Positions 11,826 through 45,091 of a stretch of 64,000 bases of DNA are shown one piece after another. A program made the translations under genes and the position numbers. The first letter of the stretch is position 1. Each line of letters starts with the position of its first letter. The stretch is from NCBI GenBank assembly GCA_902577945.1, contig CACHBB010000002.1, positions 2,043-66,042 on the forward strand. Direction: 5' to 3'. A model generated the notes under the pieces. The model saw nothing but the letters and a program-made list of their open reading frames with translations, made no database searches and was not told the DNA's origin. Source of the stretch: an uncultured Alphaproteobacteria bacterium. Lineage in GTDB: Bacteria; Pseudomonadota; Alphaproteobacteria; HIMB59; GCA-002718135.

Positions 11826-13384
11826 TTTAAATTATCAATAGCTAAATAAATTATCATACTAAATATTAAAATAACACCTGCAACAAAAGAAGCTTCATTA
11901 AACCTATAAATACTAATCAATTTATAAAGATATGATGGTAAAGTATCAAAATTTTGATCTTTAAAAAATGAAATTATCGTAAAATCACCGAAAGTAATAA
12001 CTGTTGAAAATGCAAAAACAAAAATTATATTTTTTCTTATAAGTGGTAGTAAAATTATAAAATAATTTTTTAAACTAATACGAAAAGTTTGCTGAAAACT
12101 TTCAAAATTTAAAAAAATATTTTTTAGATTATTAAAAAGTATTAATATTGAAAAAGGTATTAAAAAAAGACAATTAATTAAAATTATAACTAAATACTTG
12201 AAAAAATGTAAATATCTTAATTCACCTAATATAATAAAGTAGCCAAGGCTAAAAATAATTGGTGAGATTATTATTATTGATGAACTAATTAAAAAAATAG
12301 ATTGTTGAAAAAATATATTTTTATAATTTATCACTAATATTGATGAAATTATAAAACCAAATATACTGACAATGATTGCTGTAGTAATTGAAATTATTAA
12401 TGAATTAAAAAAAGATTCTAAAAATTTTGCATTAAATAATGTTGTATAATATCCATTATGAATAAAATTATATATTACACAAAAAATTGGTGAAAAGAAA
12501 AAGATTGAAAAAAATATAATTAGTAAAAAATCTATAGTTTTAATTACTTTATAATCTCTTTGAGGATGGATAAAATTAATTTGATCTACATCAAAAAAAT
12601 TTGAACCTTTTAATTTGTAGAAACCAATAAATAAGAAAAATAAACAAATAAATATTTGTAAAAAACTGAGTAAAATTGCCTTGTTAAAATTTAGTTCAAA
12701 AAGTGCATATTGATAAATTGCCACCTCAATTGTTGAGTACATAGGCCCCCCACCTAAAGCCATAACTATTGCAAAACTTAAAAAGCAGAGTGAAAATATT
12801 ATTGAGAAAACAATAAAAAAATTTTGTTTAATATAAGGTAATTCCAATCTAATAAGATTTCCTAAAAATTTAATATTTAGAGATTCAGATATTTCATAAT
12901 ATTTTGATGGAATACTATTTAATGATTGGATAAATAATCTGGTTGCAAATGGAGTATTTAGAAGTGTATGGGCTATTAAAATTGCTTTTATCCCAAAAAT
13001 TGTATCAATGGACAAGTATTCGTACAGATTTAAATATGAGTTATAAAATCCGTTATTTCCGTAGAGCTTAATAACTGCATAAACTATTAAGATTGTTGGA
13101 ATTACAAAACAAAATCCACAAAGAGAAATAATAAATTTAATTATTTTTGAATCCTTATGTCTATTTAATGCTAATGCAAATGGAATAGCTAAAAAACAAC
13201 TTAATATTGCAGAAACAAAAGCTTGATAAACTGAAAAATAAATTAATCGATGCGTATAAGAATTTTGAAAAAAATCAAAAAATAAATTCAAATCATAATT
13301 AACTTTTGAAACAATACCTATGAAAGGTAATATTATTATTAATCCAAAGAAAAATAATACTGAAAAGTTAGATTTGTAATACAA
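11789..13384 (-). CDS. thiP: Thiamine ABC transporter permease (fused double permease)
   Basis: 531 aa with two tandem ABC permease modules, as in E. coli ThiP. It lies directly downstream of thiB. Its 3-prime end overlaps convergent nhaD by 37 nt. Confidence 0.85.
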   Translation of the reverse strand: MYYKSNFSVLFFFGLIIILPFIGIVSKVNYDLNLFFDFFQNSYTHRLIYFSVYQAFVSAILSCFLAIPFALALNRHKDSKIIKFIISLCGFCFVIPTILIVYAVIKLYGNNGFYNSYLNLYEYLSIDTIFGIKAILIAHTLLNTPFATRLFIQSLNSIPSKYYEISESLNIKFLGNLIRLELPYIKQNFFIVFSIIFSLCFLSFAIVMALGGGPMYSTIEVAIYQYALFELNFNKAILLSFLQIFICLFFLFIGFYKLKGSNFFDVDQINFIHPQRDYKVIKTIDFLLIIFFSIFFFSPIFCVIYNFIHNGYYTTLFNAKFLESFFNSLIISITTAIIVSIFGFIISSILVINYKNIFFQQSIFLISSSIIIISPIIFSLGYFIILGELRYLHFFKYLVIILINCLFLIPFSILILFNNLKNIFLNFESFQQTFRISLKNYFIILLPLIRKNIIFVFAFSTVITFGDFTIISFFKDQNFDTLPSYLYKLISIYRFNEASFVAGVILIFSMIIYLAIDNLNYQGKSAIKTWR

Positions 13385-13389
13385 TTTAT

Positions 13390-14373
13390 TTAAGAAGCAT
13401 TAAGCCATTCATCAATCCATTTTTCTTTGTTTATATTAATTTCTTTTGGATCTATTTGAATAATATTAGGTATTTCTAATTTATTAAATGCTTCAGGCAA
13501 ATCTTTAATTGTTGTTACTGGGTACATTATATTTGTAGACGGAATTACTGATTGGAATTCTTCTGACAGCATAAAGTTAAGAAATATATTTGCTAAATCT
13601 TTATTTTTTGAATTATTTAAGATTCCAGCAAATTCAATTGTTATATAATTTCCTTCTTCAAAGGTTGTTGCGCGAATATCATATCTGTCTTCAAACATAA
13701 TATGAGCTGCAGGAGATGTAGTATAACTTAATACCATGTCTGCTTCTCCCGCCATAAAAAAATTATAGTATGCATCCGTCCAACCTTTTGTAACAGAAAT
13801 AATTTTTTTATTTAATTTTTTCCATTCAGCAGCAGCTTTATCTCCATATATGGCTTTCATCCAAGTTAATAATCCTAATCCTGGGGTAGAGGTTCTTGGG
13901 TCTTGAATTACAATTCTAGCATTAGTAGAATTAATTAACTCATCCATAGATTTTGGTGGTGATTCTAAACTTGCCTCATTATATACAAAAGAAAAGTAGC
14001 CAAAATTATATGGAACAAATTTATTACTTTCCCATTCTAATGGTAAATTCATAAGAGAGTTAATATTGTTAATATTATGAGTTGTGAAAAGCTCAGATTT
14101 ATCTGCTAGGTCAAATAAATTCATATCAAGACCTAAAACTATATCTGCCTTAGAGGTATCACCTTCTAAAATTACTTTATTTAATAATGTTGCCGCACTG
14201 TCTACTGCGATAAAATTAATATCTGTATTATATTTTTCTTCAAATTTTTTTTCAATAATAGGTCCCGGGCCCCATTCAGAAACAAAAGAGTCATAGGTAT
14301 ATATAGTTAGTTTATCAGCATAGATTGAAAAAGAGATTGATAGGGTAGTAAAAAAAATTAAAATTATTTTCAT
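13390..14373 (-). CDS. thiB: Thiamine/TPP-binding periplasmic protein
   Basis: 327 aa. From memory it is colinear with E. coli TbpA (YTYDSF..WGPGP, DPRTSTPGLGLL, VLSYTTSPA motifs). It has a signal peptide and is preceded by a TPP riboswitch. Confidence 0.9.
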   Translation of the reverse strand: MKIILIFFTTLSISFSIYADKLTIYTYDSFVSEWGPGPIIEKKFEEKYNTDINFIAVDSAATLLNKVILEGDTSKADIVLGLDMNLFDLADKSELFTTHNINNINSLMNLPLEWESNKFVPYNFGYFSFVYNEASLESPPKSMDELINSTNARIVIQDPRTSTPGLGLLTWMKAIYGDKAAAEWKKLNKKIISVTKGWTDAYYNFFMAGEADMVLSYTTSPAAHIMFEDRYDIRATTFEEGNYITIEFAGILNNSKNKDLANIFLNFMLSEEFQSVIPSTNIMYPVTTIKDLPEAFNKLEIPNIIQIDPKEININKEKWIDEWLNAS

Positions 14374-14375
14374 AT

Positions 14376-14456
14376 TTCCTCCGCTGGCATTATCCAGATC
14401 AGGTTAAAAGGGTATAAATCTCAGCATTTAAGCACCCCTAATATTGTTATAATAAA
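14376..14456 (-). promoter_or_regulatory. TPP (THI-box) riboswitch in the thiB leader
   Basis: The minus strand reads TTAGGGGTGCTTAAATGCTGAGATTTATACCCTTTTAACCTGATCTGGATAATGCCAGCGGAGGAAATATG. This contains the conserved GGGGUGC, CUGAGA, ACCC and AACCUGAUCUGGAUAAUGCCAGCG elements. The GGAGG SD follows the aptamer directly, 5 nt before the ATG. Confidence 0.92.
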
Positions 14457-18128: not shown

Positions 18129-18575
18129 TTATAATTTTCCATTTATTGTATATTTTAAAATCTTTACCACTTCTTCTACATTTTTAGTTACAGCATGTGA
18201 TGCAGCATCTATTTCCTTAAGAGCATGTTGATGTTCTTCATTGTGCATAATAATTAATGATTTATTAAGAGCTGCTGCGTATCCAGCATCAAATGCAGCA
18301 TTCCATTGTTTATATTTTTCACCAAAGCGGACTATCACAATATCAGATTTTTCAATTGCTGTTCGAGTTCTGATTGCATTAATTTTAGCACTTTTATTGT
18401 CATGCCAAAATTTGTTATTTTCGCTTCCAAGTATATTTACTCCTACATCATCTGACAATTCATGATCTGTGGTAGGACTTGAAAATTTAATTTCTAAGTT
18501 TTCATCTTTGCATTTTTCAATTATTTCATTTCTCCAATCTGTATGTATCTCACCTGATAAATAAACTTTAAGCAT
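18129..18575 (-). CDS. YtoQ-family protein (nucleoside 2-deoxyribosyltransferase-like fold)
   Basis: 148 aa. The N-terminus VYLSGEIHTDWR and overall length match my recollection of the YtoQ family. Confidence 0.6.
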   Translation of the reverse strand: MLKVYLSGEIHTDWRNEIIEKCKDENLEIKFSSPTTDHELSDDVGVNILGSENNKFWHDNKSAKINAIRTRTAIEKSDIVIVRFGEKYKQWNAAFDAGYAAALNKSLIIMHNEEHQHALKEIDAASHAVTKNVEEVVKILKYTINGKL

Positions 18576-18577
18576 TT

Positions 18578-19351
18578 TTAATTAGCTAAATAAGCGCTAG
18601 TTAATACAGGAAAACTAGTAAAACCAAACTTTTTAGATTTTTCTGCAATTTTAATTTGATTTTGCCAGTCTTTTATATGTTGTTCTTCTATTCCCTGACT
18701 CATGGCAAACTTTGCAAGCATATTTTCATAAAATATTGCTGGAGAATTTTCATCTCTATTTGTTATTAAATATGATAAATTTTCTGATTTAATATTTTGA
18801 TAGCCCAAATTTGATAACTTGCCGACTAGATCTAAAGGCAGCATCTGATGAAAGCAATGTGCTCTAAATGCTTCATGAATAATATCATTTAATTTTTTTT
18901 CTGGTCCATAAAATCTAAAGTAATCCCAGAGAATTGATACATTTACAAATTTTGAATTTTTTTTTGAAATTCTCTTAAGTTCTATTAAAGATTCATCAAC
19001 ATCTTCTATATATTCTAATGTTTGTGTAGATGTGACTTTATCACAAAAATTGTCATCAATATTAATCTTATCAGCGGTGCAACATATTAGTTTAATATTA
19101 TTCAAATCTTTACAGCGATTATTAGCAGCATCAAGTTGATCTTTACTTGGATCTATTCCAATTGATTTCCCATTTTTACCAACGCTTAAAGCAATCTCTT
19201 GTACTAAATGGCCACCTCCGCAACCAATGTCAATTACATTTTGTCCAATTTCAATGTTTAGTGAATTCATTATTGAGAGTCGACGAGAAACGCCTGCATA
19301 ACCATTAGCAATTTTTTGTTGTATTATACTTAACTCATTATCAAACTTCAT
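18578..19351 (-). CDS. Class I SAM-dependent methyltransferase (type 11)
   Basis: 257 aa with SAM motif VIDIGCGGGH. Substrate unknown. Confidence 0.7.
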   Translation of the reverse strand: MKFDNELSIIQQKIANGYAGVSRRLSIMNSLNIEIGQNVIDIGCGGGHLVQEIALSVGKNGKSIGIDPSKDQLDAANNRCKDLNNIKLICCTADKINIDDNFCDKVTSTQTLEYIEDVDESLIELKRISKKNSKFVNVSILWDYFRFYGPEKKLNDIIHEAFRAHCFHQMLPLDLVGKLSNLGYQNIKSENLSYLITNRDENSPAIFYENMLAKFAMSQGIEEQHIKDWQNQIKIAEKSKKFGFTSFPVLTSAYLAN

Positions 19352-19401
19352 AATAATAATTAACTTTCTTAGATATTTATTCTAATATAAATTTAATTAT
19401 T

Positions 19402-19812
19402 ATGGAATATTTATATACAAAAATATTTATTTTATCCTCAGTCTCATCATTATTGACAGTATTATTTATTAATACAAGATATTATAATATTTTTAAAAAA
19501 TTTTCTAAAAATAAAAAAATTCTTATTAATTTACTATCTTATTTTATTTCGTTTTGCCTTTTAACAGTATTTAATTACCAAACGTCAACTTTGGGTTTAT
19601 CTTCATTGGTAATTTTTAATGCAGCAATTATTACAATTATATTTTTTGAATTAGCAATATTTCTAGAAAAGACATTCTGGGATGATTTTCTTGGTAATTC
19701 TCTTCCTAGATCAATTAATTTATTAATTAGCTTTGTGGTCATGATGAATTTTGGTTACTTTACTTTAATGTTTTACATAAAGGTATTAGGCATTAATTAT
19801 TTTATATCATGA
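19402..19812 (+). CDS. Hypothetical integral membrane protein
   Basis: 136 aa with about four hydrophobic segments. ATGA overlap with the ade start suggests co-translation. No recognisable family. Confidence 0.45.
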   Translation: MEYLYTKIFILSSVSSLLTVLFINTRYYNIFKKFSKNKKILINLLSYFISFCLLTVFNYQTSTLGLSSLVIFNAAIITIIFFELAIFLEKTFWDDFLGNSLPRSINLLISFVVMMNFGYFTLMFYIKVLGINYFIS

Positions 19813-21617
19813 TAACTAGATTTTCTGTACCTAATCTTCATGAAGTTACAATACATTTAACTAATGTTGTTAATGGTAAATCAAAACCTGATCAAATTTT
19901 AACTAATGCAAAAATCTTATCAACTTATACTGATACTATATTAGAAAATAAAGAAGTATGGATTTCAAAGGGCCGCATTGCTTGCATCAAAAATGTAAAT
20001 GATCATAAAAGTATATTTAATGGAAATGATATTTCTGTATTTGATGTTGAAAAAAATATTTTGGCACCTGGTCTGATAGATCCTCATATGCATATTGAAA
20101 GTAGTATGATTACTGGATGTGCTTATGCTGAGGCTGCCTTATTAAATGGCACAACAACAATTTTTTGTGACTCTCACGAAATTGGAAATGTATTAGATAC
20201 AGATGGTATTGAATGGATGCTTGAAGATTGTAGACAAGCTCCTTTATCAATATTTTTAACTTTACCTAGCACTATACCGGCTACTAATGATTTATTAGAA
20301 ACTGCAGGGGGGGACTTAACTGCAACTAAGACAGCTTCTTTATATGATAAATGGCCTGAAATTTTGGGTTTAGGAGAAAAAATGGATTTTGTTTCAGTAT
20401 GTAATGGCGACAAAAGATCTCATAGTATTATTTCTGAAACTTTAAAACGAAATATTCCTGTTAGTGGTCATGTATTTGGTAGAGAATTTGTTGCCGCTTA
20501 TGCGGCAAGTGGAGTTACAGATACACATGAAGCTGAAGAAAAACTATTCACCAATGATTTGCTTAACGCGGGATTATGGATTTTTTTAAGAGGTGGAAAT
20601 CCACAAACACCGTGGAATAGTATTAAAGAAGCGATTAAAGTATTAACAGAAAGTAAAGTTAGTTCAAAGCGTATATGTGTATGTACTGACGATAGGGATG
20701 CTGATGATTTGTACAATTTTGGATTGGATTGGGTTGTAAGACAAGCCCATGAATTAGGGTTAGAAAAAACAACATCTTGGTCAATGGGATCTTTGCATCC
20801 TGCTACAAGGTATAACATAGATAGAGATTATGGAGCCCTTGGACATAGTAGAAGGGCTGACATAGTAATGTTGGATGATAGTCTTAATGTTTATAATACT
20901 TGGTTAGGTGGGGAATTAGTTGTTAAAAATAATAAAATTACTTCAGCTCTTGAACAACAATTAGAACATAAGAGATATAAATATCCTGATAGAGCTTATA
21001 ATACTGTTACATTACCAAATGAAATAAAATTAATTCCAGATATCCCTAATAAAGAAAATTTAAAAGTTAATGTTATTAAAACTGAACTACCTGGTATCAT
21101 GACAACAAGAGAAACTATAAATAGTAAAAAAGTCATTACTAATTGGAAAGCTTTTTTACTAGATAACAATTTGTGTCATGTATGTGTTGTAGAAAGACAC
21201 GGGAAAAATGGTGAATATGCTCATGGATTTTTAAAGAATTTTAATCTTAAACAGGGTGCTGTAGCAAGTTCAGTTGGACATGATGCTCACAACATAATTG
21301 TTGCTGGCATGAATGAAAGAGATATGAAATTTGCATTAGATATAATGAGAGAGACACAAGGCGGAATAGTTATTGTTAATAATGGTACTGTAATTGCAAA
21401 AGTTGAATTACCAATTGCCGGTTTACTCTCTGATAAAAGAGCAAATGTTGTTGCTGAAGAAAATAAAATATTAAAAGATAAGTGGATAAATGCTGGCTGT
21501 ACTCTTCCTTACATGGGCTTTAATTTATTACCTTTATCAGTAATTCCAAATTTCAGAATCACAAATAAAGGTTTAGTTGATGTAAACACAATGAAACTTA
21601 TTCCTTTATTTGAGTAA
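19809..21617 (+). CDS. ade: Adenine deaminase
   Basis: 602 aa amidohydrolase with APGLIDPHMHIESSM, CDSHEI and C-terminal SVGHDAHNIIV and LPIAGLLS motifs, colinear with E. coli Ade. Confidence 0.9.
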   Translation: MITRFSVPNLHEVTIHLTNVVNGKSKPDQILTNAKILSTYTDTILENKEVWISKGRIACIKNVNDHKSIFNGNDISVFDVEKNILAPGLIDPHMHIESSMITGCAYAEAALLNGTTTIFCDSHEIGNVLDTDGIEWMLEDCRQAPLSIFLTLPSTIPATNDLLETAGGDLTATKTASLYDKWPEILGLGEKMDFVSVCNGDKRSHSIISETLKRNIPVSGHVFGREFVAAYAASGVTDTHEAEEKLFTNDLLNAGLWIFLRGGNPQTPWNSIKEAIKVLTESKVSSKRICVCTDDRDADDLYNFGLDWVVRQAHELGLEKTTSWSMGSLHPATRYNIDRDYGALGHSRRADIVMLDDSLNVYNTWLGGELVVKNNKITSALEQQLEHKRYKYPDRAYNTVTLPNEIKLIPDIPNKENLKVNVIKTELPGIMTTRETINSKKVITNWKAFLLDNNLCHVCVVERHGKNGEYAHGFLKNFNLKQGAVASSVGHDAHNIIVAGMNERDMKFALDIMRETQGGIVIVNNGTVIAKVELPIAGLLSDKRANVVAEENKILKDKWINAGCTLPYMGFNLLPLSVIPNFRITNKGLVDVNTMKLIPLFE

Positions 21618-26547: not shown

Positions 26548-27111
26548 ATGATAATTGTTTGCTCTTTAAATGATTTAACTAACGTATGTGAAAGCGTTAA
26601 GCCAAAATTTGTTATTTCCGTAATTGATCCGGGATATGCTCCTGAAACTCCTAAAGGTGTAATGCATCATTTAAAACTAGGATTTGATGATATTGTAAAA
26701 ATTAGTCCAGAAAATAAAATTTTTAGACTCAATACAGATAATATACCCCAAACATTACCAGCAGAAAATCATGTAGACTCAATAATTGATTTTACAAATT
26801 ACTATAATGATGACGAAAATATAGTAATTCATTGCTGGTGTGGTGTTTCAAGATCTATGGCTACAGCTACTTATCTTTTATGCAGAAATAATACATTAAC
26901 AATTGAAACTAATATTAAATATATTCGAAAAATTGCTCCCCATGCTAATCCTAATAAATTATTAATTAAATTATTTGAAAATAAATTAAATGTTAAAAAT
27001 GAGATTAGTGCTTCATTTGAGAAATATCCTTATACTAAAACATATGATTGTTCTTCAAATTTTGCACCTGTTACTTTATTTGATATAAAAGAAATGAAAA
27101 AAACTATATGA
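26548..27111 (+). CDS. Predicted protein tyrosine/dual-specificity phosphatase (COG5350-like)
   Basis: 187 aa with the CX5R active-site loop HCWCGVSRS and an N-terminus MIIVCSL typical of this small alphaproteobacterial family. Confidence 0.65.
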   Translation: MIIVCSLNDLTNVCESVKPKFVISVIDPGYAPETPKGVMHHLKLGFDDIVKISPENKIFRLNTDNIPQTLPAENHVDSIIDFTNYYNDDENIVIHCWCGVSRSMATATYLLCRNNTLTIETNIKYIRKIAPHANPNKLLIKLFENKLNVKNEISASFEKYPYTKTYDCSSNFAPVTLFDIKEMKKTI

Positions 27112-27623
27112 AAGAATATGTAAGAACTATATCTGATTACCCTGTTAAAGGTATACAGTTTAGAGATATAACAACACTTCTTCAAGACGCTGGACATTTT
27201 AAACAAGTAATAGATGATATGACCATGCCATGGAAAAATAAGAAAATAGATGCAGTTCTTAGCATTGAATCTAGAGGATTTATTATGGCAGGAGCTATTG
27301 CTTATTTCTTAAATGCTGCCTTTATCCCTTTAAGAAAACCTCATAAACTACCTTTTGAAACATATAAAGTTTCATACGACCTAGAATATGGTTCAACCGA
27401 AATGCACATTCATACTGATGCCTTAAATGGACATAATGATTTATTAATAATAGATGATCTTCTTGCAACAGGTGGAACAGCTTTAGCTGCTGTTGAATTA
27501 ATTGAAAATTTCAAAAATAAAAATATTGTTGGTGCAGGATTTATAATTAATCTACCAGATCTTAATGGAGAAAAAAAATTAAAAGATACAGGAATTAATA
27601 TTCATTCATTGATGGAGTTTTAA
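27108..27623 (+). CDS. apt: Adenine phosphoribosyltransferase
   Basis: 171 aa with the PRPP-binding motif LLIIDDLLATGGT and the typical Apt N-terminus (IRTISDYPVKGIQFRDIT). Confidence 0.92.
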   Translation: MKEYVRTISDYPVKGIQFRDITTLLQDAGHFKQVIDDMTMPWKNKKIDAVLSIESRGFIMAGAIAYFLNAAFIPLRKPHKLPFETYKVSYDLEYGSTEMHIHTDALNGHNDLLIIDDLLATGGTALAAVELIENFKNKNIVGAGFIINLPDLNGEKKLKDTGINIHSLMEF

Positions 27624-30896: not shown

Positions 30897-30972
30897 GCGC
30901 CCGTAGCTCAGTGGATAGAGCAACCGCCTTCTAAGCGGTAGGTCAAATGTTCGAATCATTTCGGGCGCGCCA
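30897..30972 (+). tRNA. tRNA-Arg (anticodon UCU)
   Basis: GCGCCCG acceptor pairs with CGGGCGC, the D-arm is TAGCTCAGTGGATAGAGCA, the anticodon loop is CT-TCT-AA, and CCA is encoded. It closely resembles E. coli argU. Confidence 0.9.
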
Positions 30973-31337: not shown

Positions 31338-32327
31338 ATGTCCTTGGAATTTTTAATTTCAAAAATTCAAAAAAATAATTTTTTATTAATTGGCAGGGCT
31401 GGTGTCGATATTTATCCTGATCCACCTGGGACTAAAACTGAAAAGGCAAATAATTATGTGAGTCATCTTGGCGGTTCATCAGCAAATATGGGTGTTCAAT
31501 TAACTAAATATGGTGGATTATGTTCTTTACTGACAAGAGTATCTAATGATGCATTAGGTAAATTTGCTTTAAACCAATTAGATCATTATGGAGTAAGGAG
31601 AAATTTAATTAAATTAGAGGATAATGAATCTAGAATATCACTTGCTATCGTTGAATCAACTGTAGAAGATCATCAATCAATAATCTACAGGCATAAAGCT
31701 GCTGATTTGTTTTTAAATAAAACTGATATTGAAAACTCTAATATTCAAAACTATCAATGCATAATAATTACAGGAACTTCTCTTGCAGCTGAACCATCTA
31801 GAAGTGCAGTATTATATGCTTTGGAAATAGCAAAAGAAAAAAACATACCAGTAATTATGGATATAGACTATAGACCTTATACATGGGAGTCAGCGGACAA
31901 AGCAAAAAAAATTTACAATCTTGCTGGCAATTACTGTTCCGGAATAATTGGCAACGATGATGAATTTGCTGTGCTTTCAGGCAGTTATGAAGGTGGATTA
32001 AATTATGCAAAAAAAAAATCAATTAATTGTGATTTGGTAATTTATAAAATGGGTGAAAAAGGCTCAATAACTTTTGCAAATAATGAGGAAATCGAAATGG
32101 GAATTTTCCAAGTCAAACCTCTTAAACCTACTGGTGCAGGTGATGCTTTTATGGGCTCATTAATTGGAGCTCTTCTAAAAAATTATGATCTTCAAAAAGC
32201 TATAGAAATTGGTTCTGCTGCTGCTGCAATCGTTGTAACTAGAGTAGGATGTGCTCCAGCAATGCCAGATATGAATGAAGTATTAGATTTTATGAAAATT
32301 AACAGTATTAACAAAGGAGATACATAA
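31338..32327 (+). CDS. iolC: PfkB-family sugar kinase, IolC-like (5-dehydro-2-deoxygluconokinase family)
   Basis: 329 aa with an N-terminus LLIGRAGVDIYPDP...GGSSANM like IolC and C-terminal PfkB motifs (TGAGDAF, GSAAAAIVV). The family call is firm; the substrate is inferred. Confidence 0.75.
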   Translation: MSLEFLISKIQKNNFLLIGRAGVDIYPDPPGTKTEKANNYVSHLGGSSANMGVQLTKYGGLCSLLTRVSNDALGKFALNQLDHYGVRRNLIKLEDNESRISLAIVESTVEDHQSIIYRHKAADLFLNKTDIENSNIQNYQCIIITGTSLAAEPSRSAVLYALEIAKEKNIPVIMDIDYRPYTWESADKAKKIYNLAGNYCSGIIGNDDEFAVLSGSYEGGLNYAKKKSINCDLVIYKMGEKGSITFANNEEIEMGIFQVKPLKPTGAGDAFMGSLIGALLKNYDLQKAIEIGSAAAAIVVTRVGCAPAMPDMNEVLDFMKINSINKGDT

Positions 32328-33166
32328 TGCATATACCGCCGTTTGATAATCAAAATAATCCTATTGTAGATATGGATGATAAACATGTTCCTCTTAATTA
32401 TTTTAATATAGTTAAATTAAATAAAGACCAAAGTTTTGAATATGTAACCCCTGGTTATGAAACTTGTATTGTTCCCGCAACAGGAACTATAGATATTAAT
32501 ATCGAAGGCTATGAAGTTAAAAATTTAGGCACAAGAATAGTTGATGTGTGGGATGGGGAACCAGAGGGCGTATATGTACCATCTGGTACAAAAGCATCTT
32601 TTGTTGCTCTTAAGGACTCTGAAATATTTATAGCAGGTGCAAAATTTGATAAAACATTTGAACCATTTGCCGTAAGAGTTAATGAAATTGATATGGTTCA
32701 ATATGGATCAGATGATACAAAAACACATAGAAAAATTAAACATATTCTTGGCACGAAACATCATGATAAAGTAGGAAGGCTTCTTTGTAATGAATTATAT
32801 ACAGTAGGACAAGGTGGCTGGTCAGGTTTTCCCCCTCATAAACATGATACTGACAGACTTCCAGATGAAACACGCCATGATGAAACATACAACTATCGGT
32901 TTCGTCCTAATAACGGATTTGGTTTTCAATTATTTCAACAAGTTGATGACAAGGTTGGAAAAGCAGAACATATAATTGATGGATCAACAATTGCAATTCG
33001 CACAGGTTATCATCCTTGTGTTGTAGCACCGGGTTATGAAATGTATTATTTTACTATTTTAGGCGGACTATCACAGAGATCTCTAGTGCAATATTTTCAG
33101 CCTGATCATGCTTATCAAGTAGAGACTATACCCGGGATAAAAGATATGATTGCAAAATATAAATAA
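32327..33166 (+). CDS. iolB: KduI/IolB-family isomerase (5-deoxy-glucuronate isomerase-like)
   Basis: 279 aa. GGWSGFPPHKHDTD...ETYNYRF resembles the IolB metal-binding cupin motif. It overlaps iolC by 1 nt. Confidence 0.75.
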   Translation: MHIPPFDNQNNPIVDMDDKHVPLNYFNIVKLNKDQSFEYVTPGYETCIVPATGTIDINIEGYEVKNLGTRIVDVWDGEPEGVYVPSGTKASFVALKDSEIFIAGAKFDKTFEPFAVRVNEIDMVQYGSDDTKTHRKIKHILGTKHHDKVGRLLCNELYTVGQGGWSGFPPHKHDTDRLPDETRHDETYNYRFRPNNGFGFQLFQQVDDKVGKAEHIIDGSTIAIRTGYHPCVVAPGYEMYYFTILGGLSQRSLVQYFQPDHAYQVETIPGIKDMIAKYK

Positions 33167-34008
33167 TGACAGCAGTTAATTTAAAAACCATACTTAAGAA
33201 AGCGAATAAATATAACTATGCTGTAGCTGGATTAGTTGTAATTACTTGGGAAGATGCCTTAGCGTATACTGAGGCAGCAGATGAAACAGGTATTCCAATT
33301 ATTCTTCAAGCAGGACCATCATGTAGAGCATTCACTCCCATATCTATATTAGGTAAAATGTTTAGGCACCTTGCAGCTCAAACTAAAACTCCTGTATGTT
33401 GCCATCTCGATCATGGTTTTTCTTATAGAGAATGCAAAGAAGGAATCGATAGTGGTTTTACATCTGTAATGTTTGATGGTTCTAAAATGCCTTTGAAAAA
33501 AAATATCAGTATTAGCTCTAAAATTTCTCATATTGCACACAAATATAATATATCTGTTGAAGGTGAAATTGGAGAAGTTGGATATTTTAAGGGTAAAAAC
33601 TCTATAGGAACTGATATATCTGAAGCAAAAACTTATGCCTCTAAGAGTAAAGTTGATGCAATGGCTATCTCGGTTGGGAATACACACCTACAAACATCTA
33701 AAGTCGCTAAAATTGATTATAACAAAATTTTAGATATTCAAAAAATAACTAAATTACCTTTAGTACTTCATGGAAGTAGCGGAATATCAAATGGTATAAG
33801 AAAAAAAATAGCTACTAAAACGAATGTTGCCAAATTTAATATAGGAACAGAATTAAGAATAATTGGATGCAAAACATTGAGAGAAAGCTACAATAAAAAT
33901 ATTAAAAATTTTGATAAAATAAGTATTATTAAACCATCAATTAAAGAATTAAAAAAGGCTACCATCAGTGTGATTAAAAATATAGGTCCTAAAATTGTCA
34001 AAAAATAA
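33166..34008 (+). CDS. Class II ketose-(bis)phosphate aldolase, FBA/IolJ/tagatose-bisphosphate aldolase family
   Basis: 280 aa with motifs CHLDHG, GFTSVMFDGS, VEGEIGEVG, ISVGNTH, PLVLHGSSG and KFNIGTEL. It overlaps iolB by 1 nt. Confidence 0.8.
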   Translation: MTAVNLKTILKKANKYNYAVAGLVVITWEDALAYTEAADETGIPIILQAGPSCRAFTPISILGKMFRHLAAQTKTPVCCHLDHGFSYRECKEGIDSGFTSVMFDGSKMPLKKNISISSKISHIAHKYNISVEGEIGEVGYFKGKNSIGTDISEAKTYASKSKVDAMAISVGNTHLQTSKVAKIDYNKILDIQKITKLPLVLHGSSGISNGIRKKIATKTNVAKFNIGTELRIIGCKTLRESYNKNIKNFDKISIIKPSIKELKKATISVIKNIGPKIVKK

Positions 34009-34885
34009 ACTAGCTTTTATTGGTGGAAGCGGAATATATAATTTAGATATACTCACAGATATAAAAGAGCATAATCTACAATCTGCTTTTGGAAATCCTT
34101 CAAGTAAAATTATTGAAGGAAAAATTAATGATAATATAATATACTTTCTATCAAGACATGGTTCAGGTCATCGTCTATCACCATCTGAAATTAATTATAG
34201 AGCAAATATAGATTGTTTTAAGCAACTTGAAGTAACTGACATCATTTCATTATCTGCTGTTGGTTCATTAAGAGATGAACTTGATCCAGAAACTTTTGTT
34301 ATTGTAGATCAGTTTATAGATAGAACAATTAATAGAAAGAAAACTTTCTTTGAAAATGGTATTGTTGCTCATGTACCAATGGCTCAGCCAACATCTAAAG
34401 TTTTAATGGATCTTTCAAAAAACATATTAGAAGATCTAAAAATCAAACATGTATATGGCGGAACATATCTAGCTATGGAAGGTCCACAATTTTCAAGTAA
34501 AGCAGAGTCTTTATTGTACAGAAGTTGGAATTGTGATGTAATAGGCATGACAAATATGCCAGAAGCAAAATTAGCAAGAGAGGCTGAAATTAGATATGCT
34601 TCAATTTCAATGGTAACAGATTATGACTCATGGAGTTTAGAACATGATGATGTTGATTTACAAATGCTTTTAGATACTATGCATAAAAATGTTGAGAAAT
34701 CTAAAAAGTTTATTGAGAATTTTTCCAATAGATATTTTGCCGATTTAGATTTTAAACTTGATAATACATCAAAAATACTCGATACATCAATTATCACACA
34801 ACCTAGTAATTGGGATAAGAATGCTGCTGAAAAACTATCCAATATTTTAAAAAGATTTATAAAAGAAAATAATGTTAGTAAATGA
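33995..34885 (+). CDS. mtnP: S-methyl-5-thioadenosine phosphorylase
   Basis: 296 aa with AFIGGSGIY, SRHG.GH and GMTNMPEAKLAREAEIRYA motifs typical of MTAP. TTG start, overlapping the aldolase 3-prime end by 14 nt. Confidence 0.88.
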   Translation: MSKNKLAFIGGSGIYNLDILTDIKEHNLQSAFGNPSSKIIEGKINDNIIYFLSRHGSGHRLSPSEINYRANIDCFKQLEVTDIISLSAVGSLRDELDPETFVIVDQFIDRTINRKKTFFENGIVAHVPMAQPTSKVLMDLSKNILEDLKIKHVYGGTYLAMEGPQFSSKAESLLYRSWNCDVIGMTNMPEAKLAREAEIRYASISMVTDYDSWSLEHDDVDLQMLLDTMHKNVEKSKKFIENFSNRYFADLDFKLDNTSKILDTSIITQPSNWDKNAAEKLSNILKRFIKENNVSK

Positions 34886-35948
34886 TAAACACTTAACAAC
34901 TATTTGGTACGAAGAGAAAATTGATAAAGTTAAGATTATAGATCAACGTTTAATTCCATTTGAGTTAAAAATTATAGAATTAAATACTGTTGATGAAGTT
35001 TGCTATGCAATAAAAGAAATGCAGGTAAGGGGGGCACCATTGATAGGTGTAACTGCAGCATATGGTATGTATATAGCTTCCAAAGAAAATGCTAACATAG
35101 AATTTTTAGAGAATGCATCAAAAAGAATTAATGCAACAAGGCCCACAGCAGTAAATTTGTCATGGGCTCTTAGTGAAGTAATGAATAAAATTGCTGACTT
35201 GAAAGTAGAACAAACTTCAAAAAAAATTCTGGAGATAGCAAATCAAATAAGACAGGATGATATTGATAATTGTAAAAAAATTGGTGAATATGGATATGAA
35301 TTAATTAAAAAAATATATGAAATAAAAAATAAACCTATAAATATTTTAACACATTGTAATGCGGGTTGGTTGGCTACAGTCGACTGGGGTACCGCTTTAG
35401 CACCAGTATTTTTTGCTCACAAGAAAAATATACCATTACATGTATGGGTAGATGAAACAAGGCCTAGAAATCAAGGATTTAGTCTAACTTCTTGGGAGCT
35501 TATTAATGAAAAAATTCCTAATTCTTTAATAGTAGATAATGTTGGTGGACATTTGATGCAACAAAATAAAATAGATATTTGTATAACTGGCACAGATAGA
35601 ACATCTTCTAATGGAGATGTTTGTAATAAAATAGGTACTTATCTTAAAGCTCTTGCGGCTTATGATAACAATATTCCATTTTATGTTTCAGCACCTATTT
35701 CTAGTATAGATTTTAAAATTGAAAATGGCGTCAGGGATATACCAATAGAAGAGAGAGATAGTAAAGAAGTATCACATATTACTGGTTTAGATGAAAATAA
35801 TAAATTAAAAACAGTTAAGATAGTTCCTGAGGGATCTTATTGCGCTAATTTTGCATTTGATGTTACTCCTGCTAAATATATTACTAAATTAATTACTGAA
35901 AAGGGAATTATTGGTGCAAATTATAAATCTATTAGTAGTTTAAAGTAA
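34872..35948 (+). CDS. mtnA: Methylthioribose-1-phosphate isomerase (eIF-2B alpha/beta/delta-like)
   Basis: 358 aa with MQVRGAPLIGVTAAYG, THCNAG, GTDR and CNKIGTY motifs. It overlaps mtnP by 14 nt. It could equally act on 5-deoxyribose-1-phosphate. Confidence 0.88.
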   Translation: MLVNDKHLTTIWYEEKIDKVKIIDQRLIPFELKIIELNTVDEVCYAIKEMQVRGAPLIGVTAAYGMYIASKENANIEFLENASKRINATRPTAVNLSWALSEVMNKIADLKVEQTSKKILEIANQIRQDDIDNCKKIGEYGYELIKKIYEIKNKPINILTHCNAGWLATVDWGTALAPVFFAHKKNIPLHVWVDETRPRNQGFSLTSWELINEKIPNSLIVDNVGGHLMQQNKIDICITGTDRTSSNGDVCNKIGTYLKALAAYDNNIPFYVSAPISSIDFKIENGVRDIPIEERDSKEVSHITGLDENNKLKTVKIVPEGSYCANFAFDVTPAKYITKLITEKGIIGANYKSISSLK

Positions 35949-35949
35949 A

Positions 35950-36366
35950 ATGTTGTTAAAAATTTTAGATAAATTAGGGCGAAAAAAAGTTGTGTTGGAT
36001 AGAGGCCCGTCTCATCCTGAATTTCATAAAGCTAAACCATGGATGGAAAGATATTATTTATTATTTAGAAAAAGACCTAAATGGTTTCCATTTAATATTC
36101 TAATTCATAGAATGTTAGATGATGACCATGGAGAAGGAGCACATAATCATTTATGTCCATATATAACAATTATATTAAAAGGCGGATATTGGGAAACAAC
36201 TTCTAAAGGCAAATTTTGGAGAGCTCCTGGATACATTGGATTTCGTACTGCAGATCATATGCATAGAGTTGATCTTGAGCCCGGTAAAAATACAATGACT
36301 TTATTTATTCCTGGACCTTTTGGTTTAAGAAAAAATAATAGAGCTGGTTATAAAGAAAAATTTTAA
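35950..36366 (+). CDS. Conserved hypothetical His-rich small protein
   Basis: 138 aa starting 1 nt after the mtnA stop. Motifs YYLLFRKRPKWFPFNILIHRMLDDDHGEGAHNH...IILKGGYWE and DHMHRV resemble an uncharacterised family I recall (LH.F..SD.DR.LHDHPW...IL.GGY.E). This comes from memory only. Confidence 0.45.
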   Translation: MLLKILDKLGRKKVVLDRGPSHPEFHKAKPWMERYYLLFRKRPKWFPFNILIHRMLDDDHGEGAHNHLCPYITIILKGGYWETTSKGKFWRAPGYIGFRTADHMHRVDLEPGKNTMTLFIPGPFGLRKNNRAGYKEKF

Positions 36367-36370
36367 TATT

Positions 36371-37102
36371 TTAAATTGCATCAAATATTAATTTAAGGCC
36401 ACTCACAAACAATAAAATATAAATAATATTAAAAAATAGTTTTTCTGAAATAAATTTTTGAATATAAAAACCTATAACAACACTTATTGCAGCAAGTGGA
36501 AATAATAAAAGAGAAATTTTCAAATTTGAAGGAGCTAGTAAATTAAAATAATAGTATGGAAAAATTTTTACAAAATTAATAATAAAAAAAGTCATTGTCA
36601 TTGTCCCAAGATATGTCAACTTGTCTAACTTAAGAGGTAGAATATAAAAATTTATAGGTGGATTACCGGCATGTATTAAAAAACTAGTATAACCTGCAGC
36701 ACCAGACCAAAATATACCTTTAGATTTAGTGGGATTTAATAATGAATTATTTTTTTGATACATTGAAATTAATACAAATAATATCGAAATGATTCCTACT
36801 AAAAGTCTTATTTGATTTTCCGATGTATATTGAAAAGTAATGCTTCCAATAATTATACCAATTATAGATGATGGAATTATTATTTTAAGTAATTTCAAAT
36901 TCCATTTATTCCAATATAAGTATAAGGCTATAACATCCATTACAAGTAATAATGGCAAGAGAATACCAGCTGCTTTTAGAGGACTCATTGCAAAAGACAT
37001 AATTGGTACTGCTAACATTGATATTGGACCTGGAAAACCTCCTTTAGATAATCCAAAAACAATAACGCCAAAAGCTGCAAAAAAAAGAAAATAAAAATCC
37101 AT
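36371..37102 (-). CDS. TauE/SafE-family (DUF81) anion exporter
   Basis: 243 aa, about 7-8 TM, glycine-rich TauE-like helices. Its start codon shares 1 nt with the metC stop. Confidence 0.75.
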   Translation of the reverse strand: MDFYFLFFAAFGVIVFGLSKGGFPGPISMLAVPIMSFAMSPLKAAGILLPLLLVMDVIALYLYWNKWNLKLLKIIIPSSIIGIIIGSITFQYTSENQIRLLVGIISILFVLISMYQKNNSLLNPTKSKGIFWSGAAGYTSFLIHAGNPPINFYILPLKLDKLTYLGTMTMTFFIINFVKIFPYYYFNLLAPSNLKISLLLFPLAAISVVIGFYIQKFISEKLFFNIIYILLFVSGLKLIFDAI

Positions 37103-38262
37103 TAAGATAAAATTTTTAGTGCATCGTTAATATCTTTTAATTGATCTTCTCTATCTTCTAATCCACAATACAATCTAATAAGTGTTCCATTTAATTTATC
37201 TTTAAATTTTCTTTTAATCAAAGGTGGAAAAGTTATTAAGCTGTCGTATCCACCCCAACTATAACCAAGTTTAAAAACTCTCAATTTCTTATAAAATTCT
37301 TCTAGTTTTGTATTTGAATATTTTTTCTTTAAAATAAATGCGAACAAACCAGAACTACCTGTAAAGTCTCTTTTCCAAATTAAGTGGTTAGTTGTATGTT
37401 CAAGAGCGGGATGAAATACATCTTTAACTAATTTATGTTTTAATAAATTTTTTGCTAAATATAATGCATTTTTTTCTATTTCTTTCATTCTAAGTTCTAG
37501 AGTAGGTATACCTCTTAATGCTAAATAGACTTCTTCAGAACCAGGACATATACCTAAAGTTTTAGCAGTCACTCTAATTTTACGACTGTAATTTTTATCT
37601 GAAGAAACAAAGCCAATTAAAACATCAGAATGTCCATTAATATATTTGGTTCCAGCATCAATTATTATATTTATTCCAAGTTTAATTGGATTACAAAATA
37701 AAGGAGATGCCCATGTATTATCCATTACTGTGGGTATTTTGTATTTTTTTGCAATACTAGTTATAAATGGTATATCAATAATATCAAAAGTGGCTGTTCC
37801 AGGAGACTCTAAATAAATAAGTTTAGTTTTTTTATTTATTAATTTTTCAAAATTTTTTATATTATGAATAGAATGAAAATATTTAATAGATATGCCGAAT
37901 TGTTTTAAAATATTTTCACAAAACGTTCTAGTTGGACTGTAAACACTATCATTAATTAAAACCTCATCACCTTTTTTTAATAGAGCAAAAAATGGAATAA
38001 TTATTGAAGCTAAACCTGAAGGCGAAAGCACAGTATCATTACAATTGTATAAATCACTTATTGAATCTTCTAATTGTTTATGAAATGGATTTTTATTTAT
38101 TCCATAATATGTTTTTCTATCGTCTGCATTTTTAACATCATTCAAGTAATCTTTAAAATTACTGAATATCATTGTTGATCCTTTGTAAGTTCCAGGATTA
38201 ATAAATCCTTTTTGTTTAATTGGATTTCTCCCTAACTTTGTTAATCTTGTTTTTCTTTTCAT
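37102..38262 (-). CDS. metC: Cystathionine beta-lyase-like PLP enzyme (Cys/Met metabolism family)
   Basis: 386 aa with an N-terminus TRLTKLGR typical of MetC, the PLP-lysine region TKYINGHSDVLIG and a C-terminal GLEDREDQL motif. Confidence 0.8.
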   Translation of the reverse strand: MKRKTRLTKLGRNPIKQKGFINPGTYKGSTMIFSNFKDYLNDVKNADDRKTYYGINKNPFHKQLEDSISDLYNCNDTVLSPSGLASIIIPFFALLKKGDEVLINDSVYSPTRTFCENILKQFGISIKYFHSIHNIKNFEKLINKKTKLIYLESPGTATFDIIDIPFITSIAKKYKIPTVMDNTWASPLFCNPIKLGINIIIDAGTKYINGHSDVLIGFVSSDKNYSRKIRVTAKTLGICPGSEEVYLALRGIPTLELRMKEIEKNALYLAKNLLKHKLVKDVFHPALEHTTNHLIWKRDFTGSSGLFAFILKKKYSNTKLEEFYKKLRVFKLGYSWGGYDSLITFPPLIKRKFKDKLNGTLIRLYCGLEDREDQLKDINDALKILS

Positions 38263-43371: not shown

Positions 43372-43809
43372 ATGTCTAAAAAAATAGAAAATTTAATATT
43401 TAAAGCTGAATCCAAGGTAGATCTAATAACACCTTATTTTTTGGATACAGTATCTGCAGGTTTCCCATCTCCAGCTACTGATTACATGGAAAACAAACTC
43501 GATCTTAATGAATATTTGGTTCAACGTCCAACAGCAACGTATATCGTTAAAGCTAATGGCCCTTCCATGGCTGATGCAGGTATATTATCAGGTGATTTAC
43601 TTATTGTTGATAGAAGTGTTACGCCTCGTAATGATAATATTGTTATAGCTTCAATCTTTGGTGACCTAACAGTTAAAAAATTAAAAAAGAAAGATCGGTC
43701 ATTATTCTTAATTTCTGCCAATAGTGAGTATCCTAGTATTCAAGTTAAAGAAGAAATGGAGTGTTTTATATGGGGGGTAGTGACATATGTCATACACAAA
43801 ACTACTTAA
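43372..43809 (+). CDS. umuD: Translesion polymerase V accessory subunit UmuD (S24 LexA-like peptidase)
   Basis: 145 aa with an Ala-Gly cleavage-site candidate (VSAGFPSPA), catalytic Ser in GPSM and Lys in TVKKL. Confidence 0.88.
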   Translation: MSKKIENLIFKAESKVDLITPYFLDTVSAGFPSPATDYMENKLDLNEYLVQRPTATYIVKANGPSMADAGILSGDLLIVDRSVTPRNDNIVIASIFGDLTVKKLKKKDRSLFLISANSEYPSIQVKEEMECFIWGVVTYVIHKTT

Positions 43810-45091
43810 TAGAAATCATAGCTCAATAAATCAGTCTATAGCATTGATAGATTGCAATAATTTTTATGCGTCATGTGAAAGAATATTTAACCCAAAACTT
43901 ATAGGCAAACCAATTGTTGTACTTTCCAATAATGATGGTTGTATTATTGCACGCTCAAAAGAAGCAAAAAAATTAGGCATAAAAATGGGTGAACCTTATT
44001 TTAAAGCAAAAAATATTATTGAAAAAAATGATGTTAAAGTTTTTTCATCTAATTATTCTTTGTATGGTGATATTTCACAGAGGGTAATGGAGACTTTATC
44101 AAGTTTTTCTTCAGAGGTAGAAATCTATTCCATAGATGAAGCATTTCTTGGTTTAAATGGTTTTGAGAACTATGAGTTAAACACTTATTGCAGACACATT
44201 AGGCAAACAATTAAGAAGTGGGTTGGCATTCCAGTTAGTATTGGAGTGGGGTCAACAAAAACACTATCTAAAATAGCCAATCACTTAGCAAAACAGAAAT
44301 CAGATTACAAAGGTGTGTGCATATTGCAAAATAAAATAGAAATAAAAAGAGGTTTAGAATCAACGTCAATAGAGGATGTTTGGGGTATTGGTAGGCGTTT
44401 ATCTATTTTTCTTAAAAAATATAATATTAATACAGCTTACCATTTTTCTCAGATGGATAGAGGGTGGATTAGAAAAAATATGGGTGTAGTTGGAGAAAAA
44501 ACTTATTTAGAATTAAGTGGAGTATCATGTTTAGATCTTGATTTAGTGCCAAGTGATAAAAAAAGTTGCTGTGTTTCAAGATCATTTAGCAGTCCGATAG
44601 AAAAGTTATTTGATCTAGAGGAATCTATTTCAACATATGGATCTAAGGTTTCTGAAAAGATACGCGAGGAGGGGTTAGTAGCGGAGTCAATGAATGTTTT
44701 TGTATTAACTAATCACTTCAATAGAAGAGAAAGACAGTACTCTAATTCAATAAAACTTAATTTACCTTTTCCAACAAATAACAGTATTAAAATTGTTAAA
44801 AGAGCTCTTGAAGGAATTAGAAAAATTTATCGTCCTGGATACCGCTATAAAAAAGCAGGAATTATATTATCTGGTCTTAGCAGACATAATACTACAAAAG
44901 GTTTACTTGATTATGATCGTGATATTTCTGATAAGATGATGCAGACTATTGATACAATTAATTCTAGATACGGATCCTCTACATTGAAAATTGCCTCAGA
45001 AGGCATAGAAAAAGCATGGAAGATGAAAAGAGAGAATGTGTCTCCATGCTATACAACAAGATTTGAAGAGTTAGCTAGGGTAAAATCTTAA
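43787..45091 (+). CDS. umuC: Y-family DNA polymerase V catalytic subunit UmuC
   Basis: 434 aa. IALIDCNNFYASCERIFNP, SIDEAFL and SIGVGSTKTLSK are Y-family motifs. It overlaps umuD by 23 nt. Confidence 0.9.
   Translation: MSYTKLLNRNHSSINQSIALIDCNNFYASCERIFNPKLIGKPIVVLSNNDGCIIARSKEAKKLGIKMGEPYFKAKNIIEKNDVKVFSSNYSLYGDISQRVMETLSSFSSEVEIYSIDEAFLGLNGFENYELNTYCRHIRQTIKKWVGIPVSIGVGSTKTLSKIANHLAKQKSDYKGVCILQNKIEIKRGLESTSIEDVWGIGRRLSIFLKKYNINTAYHFSQMDRGWIRKNMGVVGEKTYLELSGVSCLDLDLVPSDKKSCCVSRSFSSPIEKLFDLEESISTYGSKVSEKIREEGLVAESMNVFVLTNHFNRRERQYSNSIKLNLPFPTNNSIKIVKRALEGIRKIYRPGYRYKKAGIILSGLSRHNTTKGLLDYDRDISDKMMQTIDTINSRYGSSTLKIASEGIEKAWKMKRENVSPCYTTRFEELARVKS

Follow-up and report, generated by a model that had tools for sequence, protein, structure and literature searches.

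Two described systems stand closest to the locus reported here. The lower branch of myo-inositol catabolism, as in the Bacillus subtilis pathway, is carried out by IolB, IolC and IolJ, and a separate FBA-family aldolase has been found to accompany the inositol pathway in a survey (PMC9430895). The dihydroxyacetone phosphate (DHAP) shunt proceeds through MtnP, or MtnN plus MtnK, followed by MtnA and the aldolase Ald2 in Rhodospirillum rubrum and extraintestinal pathogenic Escherichia coli (ExPEC), and through DrdK, DrdI and DrdA in Bacillus thuringiensis. In a 64-kb stretch of contig CACHBB010000002.1 from an uncultured alphaproteobacterium (hereafter the window), six open reading frames (ORFs) bring enzymes of both systems together: an inositol-type kinase, isomerase and aldolase (iolC-iolB-aldolase, the triad), mtnP and mtnA, and an ORF of 138 aa. 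The sequence-only reading of this DNA had proposed a single operon that funnels by-products of S-adenosylmethionine (SAM) and a 5-deoxy sugar acid through one FBA-family aldolase. Comparison with about 140 related loci leaves that proposal unsupported, since the modules are separable and a FucA-type aldolase belongs to the mtn module. The locus is a new instance of known modules, and the block probably consists of three independent pieces lying side by side in a compact marine genome rather than one new shared-aldolase pathway.

Set against the lower inositol branch, the window shares its three families, and the order of their genes, with about 60 clusters from marine Alphaproteobacteria and Granulosicoccaceae, and its kinase-only IolC with a separate FBA-family aldolase is an arrangement found in many Alphaproteobacteria. 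Unlike full inositol clusters, it is devoid of IolD, IolE, IolG, a transporter and a regulator, and its aldolase has drifted at 24% of otherwise-invariant sites. With the DHAP shunt it shares MtnP and MtnA, encoded next to each other, whereas the class II FucA/Ald2-type aldolase step is missing. In relatives of the window this aldolase is present but, in contrast to a stand-alone Ald2, is fused to a short-chain dehydrogenase (NF006192, RhaD-aldolase/ADH-like; ADH, alcohol dehydrogenase). By family, the fusion is a bifunctional rhamnulose-1-phosphate aldolase/short-chain dehydrogenase (TIGR02632 / PRK08324), although it adjoins mtnA or mtnP and not rhamnose genes; the window itself is without it. 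The 138-aa ORF has its fold and a His-rich putative site in common with metal-dependent single-domain cupins (cupin-type phosphoglucose isomerase, TM1459, thiol dioxygenases), but the similarity is at fold level only (TM about 0.5, 14-18% identity), without family membership. A literature search found nothing on an inositol triad in SAR11 or on a SAR11 DHAP shunt, nor a description of an Aldolase_II/short-chain dehydrogenase (SDR) fusion beside mtnA, and Candidatus Pelagibacter is absent among the entries in the accessible part of an iol-gene survey.

A putative lower inositol branch without a nearby upper pathway

When species-representative genomes were searched for relatives of the window's IolB-like protein, 80 loci were returned, about 60 of them from non-SAR11 marine bacteria (Roseobacter-group genera, Roseibium/Labrenzia, Hoeflea, Aurantimonas and Granulosicoccaceae). 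SAR11-type loci combine low GC content with the flanks seen in the window, which are apt, thiolase, acyl-CoA dehydrogenase and NDUFS4 on the upstream side and TauE and a metC-like gene on the downstream side; for the window lineage, this label follows from GC content, gene packing and nearest relatives. Neighbourhoods of the triad loci were compared within 10 kb, with flanking ORFs clustered and representatives annotated. Sites at least 97% invariant across the non-SAR11 inositol-cluster orthologs are called invariant below, and the ratio of nonsynonymous to synonymous substitution rates (dN/dS) was computed for the window genes against loci L004 and L005.

Searches of Pfam and NCBIfam returned the families that had been assigned by inspection: PfkB/IolC_N, KduI/IolB, class II F_bP_aldolase, PNP_UDP_1/MTAP and IF-2B/MtnA, and no family for the last ORF (Table 1). 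The order iolC-iolB-aldolase recurs at all 60 non-SAR11 loci, none of which carries mtnP, mtnA or the cupin within 10 kb of the triad. IolD is encoded immediately upstream in 50 of the 60 (TIGR04377, 790 bits against a cutoff of 715), and these loci also hold an IolE-like TIM barrel, two or three Gfo/Idh/MocA dehydrogenases, a LacI regulator and a sugar ABC transporter. IolC of the window is 42-53% identical to the orthologs beside IolD, encoded between iolD and iolB in these clusters (60 loci), and retains 68 of 72 invariant sites. SAR11-specific changes affect three invariant sites (N119H, D201S and T254K) and are not seen in L023, a SAR11-like locus described below. IolB is 72-76% identical to the 60 non-SAR11 orthologs over its full length (residues 1-279) and keeps 137 of 143 invariant sites (96%). 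The aldolase displays the metal-site motifs D82/H83, H174 and H202 and retains 68 of 89 invariant sites. All three genes are under strong purifying selection, with dN/dS of 0.04-0.05 for iolB, 0.07-0.09 for the aldolase gene and 0.11-0.15 for iolC.

The low NCBIfam scores of the triad were considered as a sign of neofunctionalisation and rejected as such. In Roseobacter sp. CCS2, which has a complete inositol cluster, IolC, IolB and the aldolase reach 299, 147 and 223 bits with these models, the same sub-cutoff pattern as in the window, so the low scores are a clade trait and not evidence of new function. From orthology and gene order we infer that the window triad represents the lower branch of inositol catabolism, made up of a kinase-only IolC, IolB and a putative IolJ-type FBA-family aldolase. 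Its upper part is not in sight: no tblastn match to IolD, IolE or IolG was found in the 64-kb window and none of the three lies within 10 kb in 22 SAR11-type loci, and the same holds for an inositol transporter or regulator.

Several related arrangements were noted. In L023 (L023:1-13400, SAR11-like by its GC content of 30%) the triad is embedded in another kind of sugar cluster, which lacks mtn genes and has no IolD within 10 kb. Also encoded there are two binding proteins with an ABC transporter, one Gfo/Idh/MocA dehydrogenase and a pair of TIM barrels resembling xylose isomerase, along with a glyoxalase, an HpcH/HpaI aldolase and a dioxygenase of the Gig2-like type (PF07350). This cluster may offer another way into the lower inositol branch. 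Between iolD and iolC, Roseobacter sp. CCS2 (L048:8133-9008) and eight other loci have an additional gene of the PhyH family (phytanoyl-CoA dioxygenase-like). Sister-clade IolB-like proteins from Bosea, a verrucomicrobium and a metagenome-assembled genome were set aside: they are stand-alone isomerases whose genes neighbour those for transporters or glycoside hydrolases, and neither a kinase nor an aldolase nor an mtn gene accompanies them.

The mtn module and the fused aldolase of relatives

The mtnP and mtnA genes of the window are under purifying selection, with dN/dS of 0.11-0.17 and 0.12-0.17, respectively; in fusion-bearing lineages of comparable dS the constraint is only a little tighter (0.07-0.11). 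In many SAR11-type relatives the point directly after mtnA is occupied by the fusion of about 675 aa (for example L001:13624-15651, L009:13127-15136 and L002:14976-17000), which scores 799 bits against NF006192 (cutoff 639). Querying metagenomes with the fusion brought in additional contigs, including L089, L105, L129, L133, L137 and L162. In the low-GC contigs the fusion directly follows mtnA wherever upstream sequence is visible, and usually precedes the cupin wherever downstream sequence is visible. Homologs also lie beside mtnA or mtnP in the unrelated higher-GC contigs L129, L133, L137 and L162, so that the union of an aldolase with an aldehyde-converting enzyme looks like a recurrent form of the DHAP shunt. 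Contig L089 carries NDUFS4 followed by mtnP-mtnA-fusion-cupin and no triad, and in L105 the mtn module is accompanied by other genes where the triad would be. Judged by these gene contents, the mtnP-mtnA-fusion set is a self-sufficient DHAP-type shunt, with or without the triad. The assignment of mtnP-mtnA to such a shunt, already made in the sequence-only reading, is supported; in sister lineages a FucA-type aldolase domain directly follows mtnA.

In the window the mtnA-cupin junction is empty. No tblastn match to the Aldolase_II/SDR fusion or to a remnant of it was detected there, and a Pfam sweep of 40 further window ORFs yielded no aldehyde dehydrogenase, Aldolase_II or MtnB-, MtnC-, MtnD- or MtnK-type family. 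The absence of iolG, iolE, iolD, mtnB, mtnC, mtnD, mtnK and a FucA-like aldolase that had been noted by inspection therefore holds as far as these two approaches reach. In a neighbour-joining tree of MtnA plus MtnP, the fusion-less window, L004 and L005 form one lineage nested among fusion-bearing lineages, with L090 as sister, then L091 and L099; because of this nesting, the dedicated aldolase is taken to have been lost in the window lineage. A FucA-type aldolase had been named beforehand as a finding that would speak against a shared aldolase. It does belong to the mtn module in most SAR11-type relatives, but it is missing from the window itself, as a derived loss.

Genes of adenine metabolism surround the module. 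The apt ORF of the window is 82-88% identical across 19 SAR11-type loci, and its product is a likely consumer of the adenine released by MtnP. At 18129-21617 the window encodes a YtoQ-type nucleoside 2-deoxyribosyltransferase-like protein and an adenine deaminase, which together with apt place purine salvage near the mtn genes; the three fit a role of MtnP in adenine salvage. In L105, a 601-aa protein that by eye resembles an adenine-deaminase-type amidohydrolase is encoded two genes upstream of mtnP (L105:407-2212). SAR11 has been reported to carry speE, a source of 5'-methylthioadenosine (MTA), and mmsA, which encodes malonate-semialdehyde dehydrogenase (PMC8437039).

A variable cassette between aldolase and cupin

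Four arrangements were distinguished between the aldolase and cupin genes of SAR11-type loci. Variant a (the window, L004 and L005) has mtnP-mtnA only, and variant b (six loci) has mtnP-mtnA plus the fusion of about 675 aa. In variant c the space is filled by a single gene for a 176-aa nucleosidase-type PNP_UDP_1 protein (nine loci: L006, L008, L010, L011, L012, L015, L019, L021 and L022). Variant d (L002 and L003) has mtnP-mtnA, Fe-ADH_2 and the fusion, with a DUF1330 gene after the cupin. The nucleosidase-type protein (L006:11185-11715) scores 82 bits against NF004168, below the cutoff of 129, and appears to be an alternative means of 5'-deoxynucleoside cleavage at the same site.

The six-gene adjacency, which the sequence-only reading had suggested examining for conservation, does not behave as a unit. 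The triad occurs without mtn genes at all 60 non-SAR11 loci, at the nine nucleosidase-only SAR11-type loci and in L023; L089 and L105 have the mtn module but not the triad; and the cupin likewise occurs without the other two.

The aldolase varies at several positions (27, 78, 204, 234, 235 and 251). Phe234, invariant in 57 inositol-cluster orthologs, is replaced by Gly in lineage a, to which the window belongs, and by Ala in lineages b1 and b2, in all three of which mtnP-mtnA directly follow the aldolase gene; L023 and the nucleosidase and Fe-ADH variants retain Phe. The otherwise-invariant G27 and G235 are changed in lineages a and b2. Every SAR11-type variant from a to d has V78C and G204S (HGGSG to HGSSG) as fixed changes, which L023 does not share. 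These substitutions may reflect either phylogeny or remodelling of the pocket. The change at Phe234 is also present in the fusion-bearing b1 and b2, and hence does not track loss of the fusion.

The 138-aa cupin

The last ORF of the block gave no Pfam, NCBIfam or PDB sequence match, and matched PHROG 4786, annotated as 'cysteine dioxygenase' (E = 1.2e-23). Its AlphaFold (AF2) model is a confident barrel (pLDDT 85, pTM 0.76), and Foldseek related the model to cupin-type phosphoglucose isomerases, the Mn cupin TM1459, quercetinase, KdgF and DddQ, with a probability of 1.0 to many cupins and resemblance confined to the fold. According to this model, the 138-aa ORF is a cupin fold with a His-rich putative metal site. 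It is constrained (dN/dS 0.09-0.11) and present in every SAR11-type cassette variant. Homologs 72-75% identical are encoded in other SAR11-type contigs (L167:10001-10432; L171-L176) after a BamB-like (PQQ_2) gene in a housekeeping context without iol or mtn genes, which means that the cupin is not dedicated to either module. In L167 the cupin homolog is followed by YjbQ, and the family is widespread, with at least two genomic homes. A function as MtnD/acireductone dioxygenase or as a pathway epimerase was rejected, given that no acireductone dioxygenase is among the top fold matches and that the cupin occurs without iol or mtn genes.

Gene packing and flanking features

All six forward-strand ORFs were found at 31338-36366 as originally described, and direct reading of the junctions bore out their spacing: 1-nt overlaps (TAATG) between iolC and iolB at 32327 and between iolB and the aldolase gene at 33166, 14-nt overlaps between the aldolase gene and mtnP and between mtnP and mtnA, and a single spacer base (35949) between the mtnA stop and the 138-aa ORF (-1, -1, -14, -14 and +1 nt). 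The TTG start of mtnP at 33995 is likewise confirmed as the sole in-frame start between the upstream stop and the conserved LAFIGGSG motif. The two closest relatives also begin with TTG, whereas a sister contig has GTG and more distant lineages use an ATG within an overlap of 4 nt (ATGA).

Tight spacing was rejected as a sign of functional coupling on the basis of the whole window (coding density about 95%, GC about 29%). Among its 42 other same-strand neighbour pairs the gap is at most 1 nt in 50% and at most 6 nt in 71%, with a median of 1.5 nt; because half of these pairs lie no more than 1 nt apart, the packing of the six genes is unremarkable. A promoter and terminator scan found no terminator-like sites between 26.5 and 38.4 kb, and its counts, including those of promoter-like sites, were no higher than in shuffled sequence, which made the scan uninformative. 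The overlaps and the absence of terminator-like sites are compatible with a single predicted transcript across the six genes, which are probably co-transcribed, reflecting genome packing rather than a shared pathway.

The upstream edge of the block is formed by a tRNA-Arg gene in a 143-nt gap, and no riboswitch or other regulatory RNA apart from this tRNA was found upstream of the cluster. Between the tRNA and iolC lies a gene for a small GFA-family protein whose stop is 3 nt before iolC. It is kept at the same position in 19 SAR11-type loci with dN/dS of 0.04-0.07, and it probably opens the transcription unit to which iolC belongs, which would make the block one of seven genes. Downstream, the permease and cystathionine beta-lyase-like pair marks a conserved boundary of the variable region and is syntenic in all SAR11-type loci that reach that far.

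Table 1. Annotated features of the gene block and its flanks (window coordinates)
Feature	Coordinates	Strand	Family evidence and remarks
Adenine phosphoribosyltransferase (apt)	27108..27623	+	PF00156 gene at syntenic position in L001, L002
tRNA-Arg, anticodon TCT	30897..30972	+	Rfam RF00005 72.8 bits; ARAGORN
GFA-family (glutathione-dependent formaldehyde-activating-like) small protein, 113 aa	30993..31334	+	PF04828 53 bits
IolC-type kinase, kinase domain only, 5-dehydro-2-deoxygluconokinase ortholog	31338..32327	+	PfkB; TIGR04382 302.6 bits (cutoff 300), full length
IolB-type cupin isomerase, 5-deoxy-glucuronate isomerase ortholog	32327..33166	+	PF04962 250 bits; TIGR04378 162 (cutoff 205)
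Class II FBA-family aldolase, putative IolJ role (6-phospho-5-dehydro-2-deoxygluconate aldolase type)	33166..34008	+	PF01116 229 bits; below every NCBIfam FBA/TBA cutoff
MtnP-type 5'-methylthioadenosine phosphorylase, TTG start	33995..34885	+	PNP_UDP_1; NF006492 381.7 (cutoff 437); TIGR01694 268.3 (cutoff 274.85); full length
MtnA, S-methyl-5-thioribose-1-phosphate isomerase	34872..35948	+	IF-2B; TIGR00512 412 (cutoff 279)
Junction, empty in window; relatives carry Aldolase_II (FucA/Ald2-type)/SDR fusion of about 675 aa, some with Fe-ADH_2 gene before it	35948..35950	+	L001, L002, L009, L014, L016, L017, L020 and many metagenome contigs
Single-domain cupin (predicted), 138 aa	35950..36366	+	Invariant H60, H65, H67, C69, E82, H105
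TauE/SafE-family permease and cystathionine beta-lyase-like (metC-like) gene	36371..38262	-	PF01925, PF01053; convergent

Elsewhere in the window, a bacteriorhodopsin-family (proteorhodopsin-type) gene at 195-959 is consistent with a SAR11-type photoheterotroph. A thiamine pyrophosphate (TPP) riboswitch (14360-14449, minus strand, 68 bits) is located immediately upstream of a solute-binding protein gene (13390-14373, minus strand), which suggests a transporter of thiamine or a thiamine precursor. The genome, though otherwise streamlined, also has an SOS-type translesion pair at 43372-45091, in which a gene of the Peptidase_S24 family (LexA/UmuD-like) and one for a polymerase of the UmuC/impB family overlap. 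Three ORFs had no Pfam match at E <= 1e-5: 11789-13384 (minus strand, 531 aa), 19402-19812 (plus strand, 136 aa) and 56456-56974 (plus strand, 172 aa).

Discussion

If the block is a mosaic of three pieces, as we consider probable, orthology to complete inositol clusters predicts the chemistry of the triad: IolB would convert 5-deoxy-D-glucuronate to 5-dehydro-2-deoxy-D-gluconate, IolC would phosphorylate this product, and the IolJ-type aldolase would cleave the phosphate ester to DHAP and malonate semialdehyde, to be taken onward by the mmsA product reported in SAR11. MtnP and MtnA would be the front end of a DHAP shunt for 5'-deoxynucleosides (MTA and 5'-deoxyadenosine), in which MtnP would free adenine for the nearby apt and adenine deaminase and MtnA would yield (methylthio/deoxy)ribulose-1-phosphate. 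In sister lineages the FucA-type aldolase/dehydrogenase fusion after mtnA would complete the route; the window lineage has lost it, and the last shunt step would therefore be encoded elsewhere or carried out by another enzyme. The 138-aa protein would be a free-standing metal cupin with a role unrelated to both modules.

Several observations weigh against this mosaic. The triad has no visible source of 5-deoxyglucuronate, iolD, iolE and iolG being absent from the window and from the 22 loci, and yet is strongly constrained. The aldolase deviates at 21 of 89 otherwise-invariant sites, and its Phe234 is Gly or Ala where mtnP-mtnA directly follow. Every triad-bearing SAR11-type locus except L023 has a gene for 5'-deoxynucleoside cleavage directly after the aldolase gene, and this recurrence could reflect function and not only synteny. 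Finally, mtnP and mtnA are still constrained after loss of the fusion, with no consumer of the MtnA product visible in the window.

One way to read these points is that orphan inositol-type enzymes have been recruited to the salvage of SAM by-products, either through the aldolase acting on a C3-epimerised methylthio- or deoxy-pentulose-1-phosphate or through the whole triad acting on free 5-deoxyribose or methylthioribose. We regard such recruitment as quite improbable; if true, the resulting DHAP shunt would employ the aldolase family opposite to that of every known one. In its first form, the IolJ-type aldolase of the window lineage would cleave the MtnA product, perhaps once this has been epimerised at C3 to a xylulose configuration like that of 6-phospho-5-dehydro-2-deoxygluconate (DKGP). 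DKGP and a 3-epimerised methylthio- or deoxy-pentulose-1-phosphate have a common 1-phospho-2-keto-(3S,4R)-diol-5-CH2X skeleton, and this match favours a shared aldolase, as do the maintenance of mtnP and mtnA under purifying selection without the fusion, the lack of another consumer of the MtnA product in 64 kb, and the aldolase substitutions, at F234 in lineages a, b1 and b2 and at G27 and G235 in a and b2, three lineages in which mtnP-mtnA directly follow the aldolase gene. FBA-family class II aldolases, however, make and cleave the 3S configuration, and ribulose-derived substrates are 3R; the stereochemical caveat that accompanied the sequence-only reading is sound. Moreover, every solved relative of the aldolase is a fructose bisphosphate, tagatose bisphosphate or ketose-bisphosphate aldolase or YdjI, no epimerase was identified and the cupin is not tied to the cluster, the F234 change extends to the fusion-bearing b1 and b2, the dN/dS of the aldolase gene is ordinary, and the triad and mtn modules are separable. 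Weakened by the independence of the modules, the dedicated FucA-type aldolase of sister lineages, the conservation of IolB relative to genuine inositol clusters and the 3S/3R mismatch, the shared-aldolase hypothesis is not supported, and we judge it very unlikely.

The second form, in which the orphan triad would handle free 5-deoxyribose or methylthioribose, from the nucleosidase variant or from seawater, in the order isomerase, kinase and aldolase (compare FucI, FucK and FucA), is in our view highly improbable. A nucleosidase-type gene, whose product would free the sugar, does stand alone between aldolase and cupin in nine SAR11-type loci, no iolD, iolE or iolG is near the triad, the substrates have a common OHC-(CHOH)3-CH2-X skeleton, and the N119H, D201S and T254K changes of IolC are SAR11-specific and missing from L023. 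But the close identity of IolB to true inositol-cluster orthologs, with nearly all invariant sites kept, argues for unchanged specificity, the ribo and xylo configurations differ at C3 in front of a 3S-specific aldolase family, the sister-clade IolB-like genes offer no precedent, and no literature support was found. An explanation that needs no aldolase at all is that mtnP-mtnA mainly free adenine from, or detoxify, MTA, 5'-deoxyadenosine and other adenosine-type nucleosides, the sugar phosphate being dephosphorylated and excreted or handled non-specifically. The apt, adenine deaminase and YtoQ-type genes in the same window and the adenine-deaminase-like protein near mtnP in L105 point in this direction, many SAR11-type genomes manage with the nucleosidase alone, and a broad nucleoside range has been discussed for MTAP enzymes of marine bacteria (bioRxiv 10.1101/2024.02.09.579562). 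MtnA would then be dispensable, yet it is intact and constrained to the degree given above, and we consider this explanation unlikely.

With the mosaic of three pieces as the preferred reading, the locus is a polymorphic cassette site, occupied by a nucleosidase, by mtnP-mtnA or by mtnP-mtnA with a fused aldolase/dehydrogenase, beside an orphan lower-inositol triad. It raises two questions, namely what feeds the triad without nearby iolD, iolE and iolG, and what consumes the MtnA product in a lineage without the aldolase. SAR11 bacteria, dominant in the surface ocean, are incapable of sulfate reduction and feed on small dissolved metabolites. How MTA and 5'-deoxyadenosine are discarded or recycled by these bacteria matters to the cycling of sulfur and carbon in the sea.

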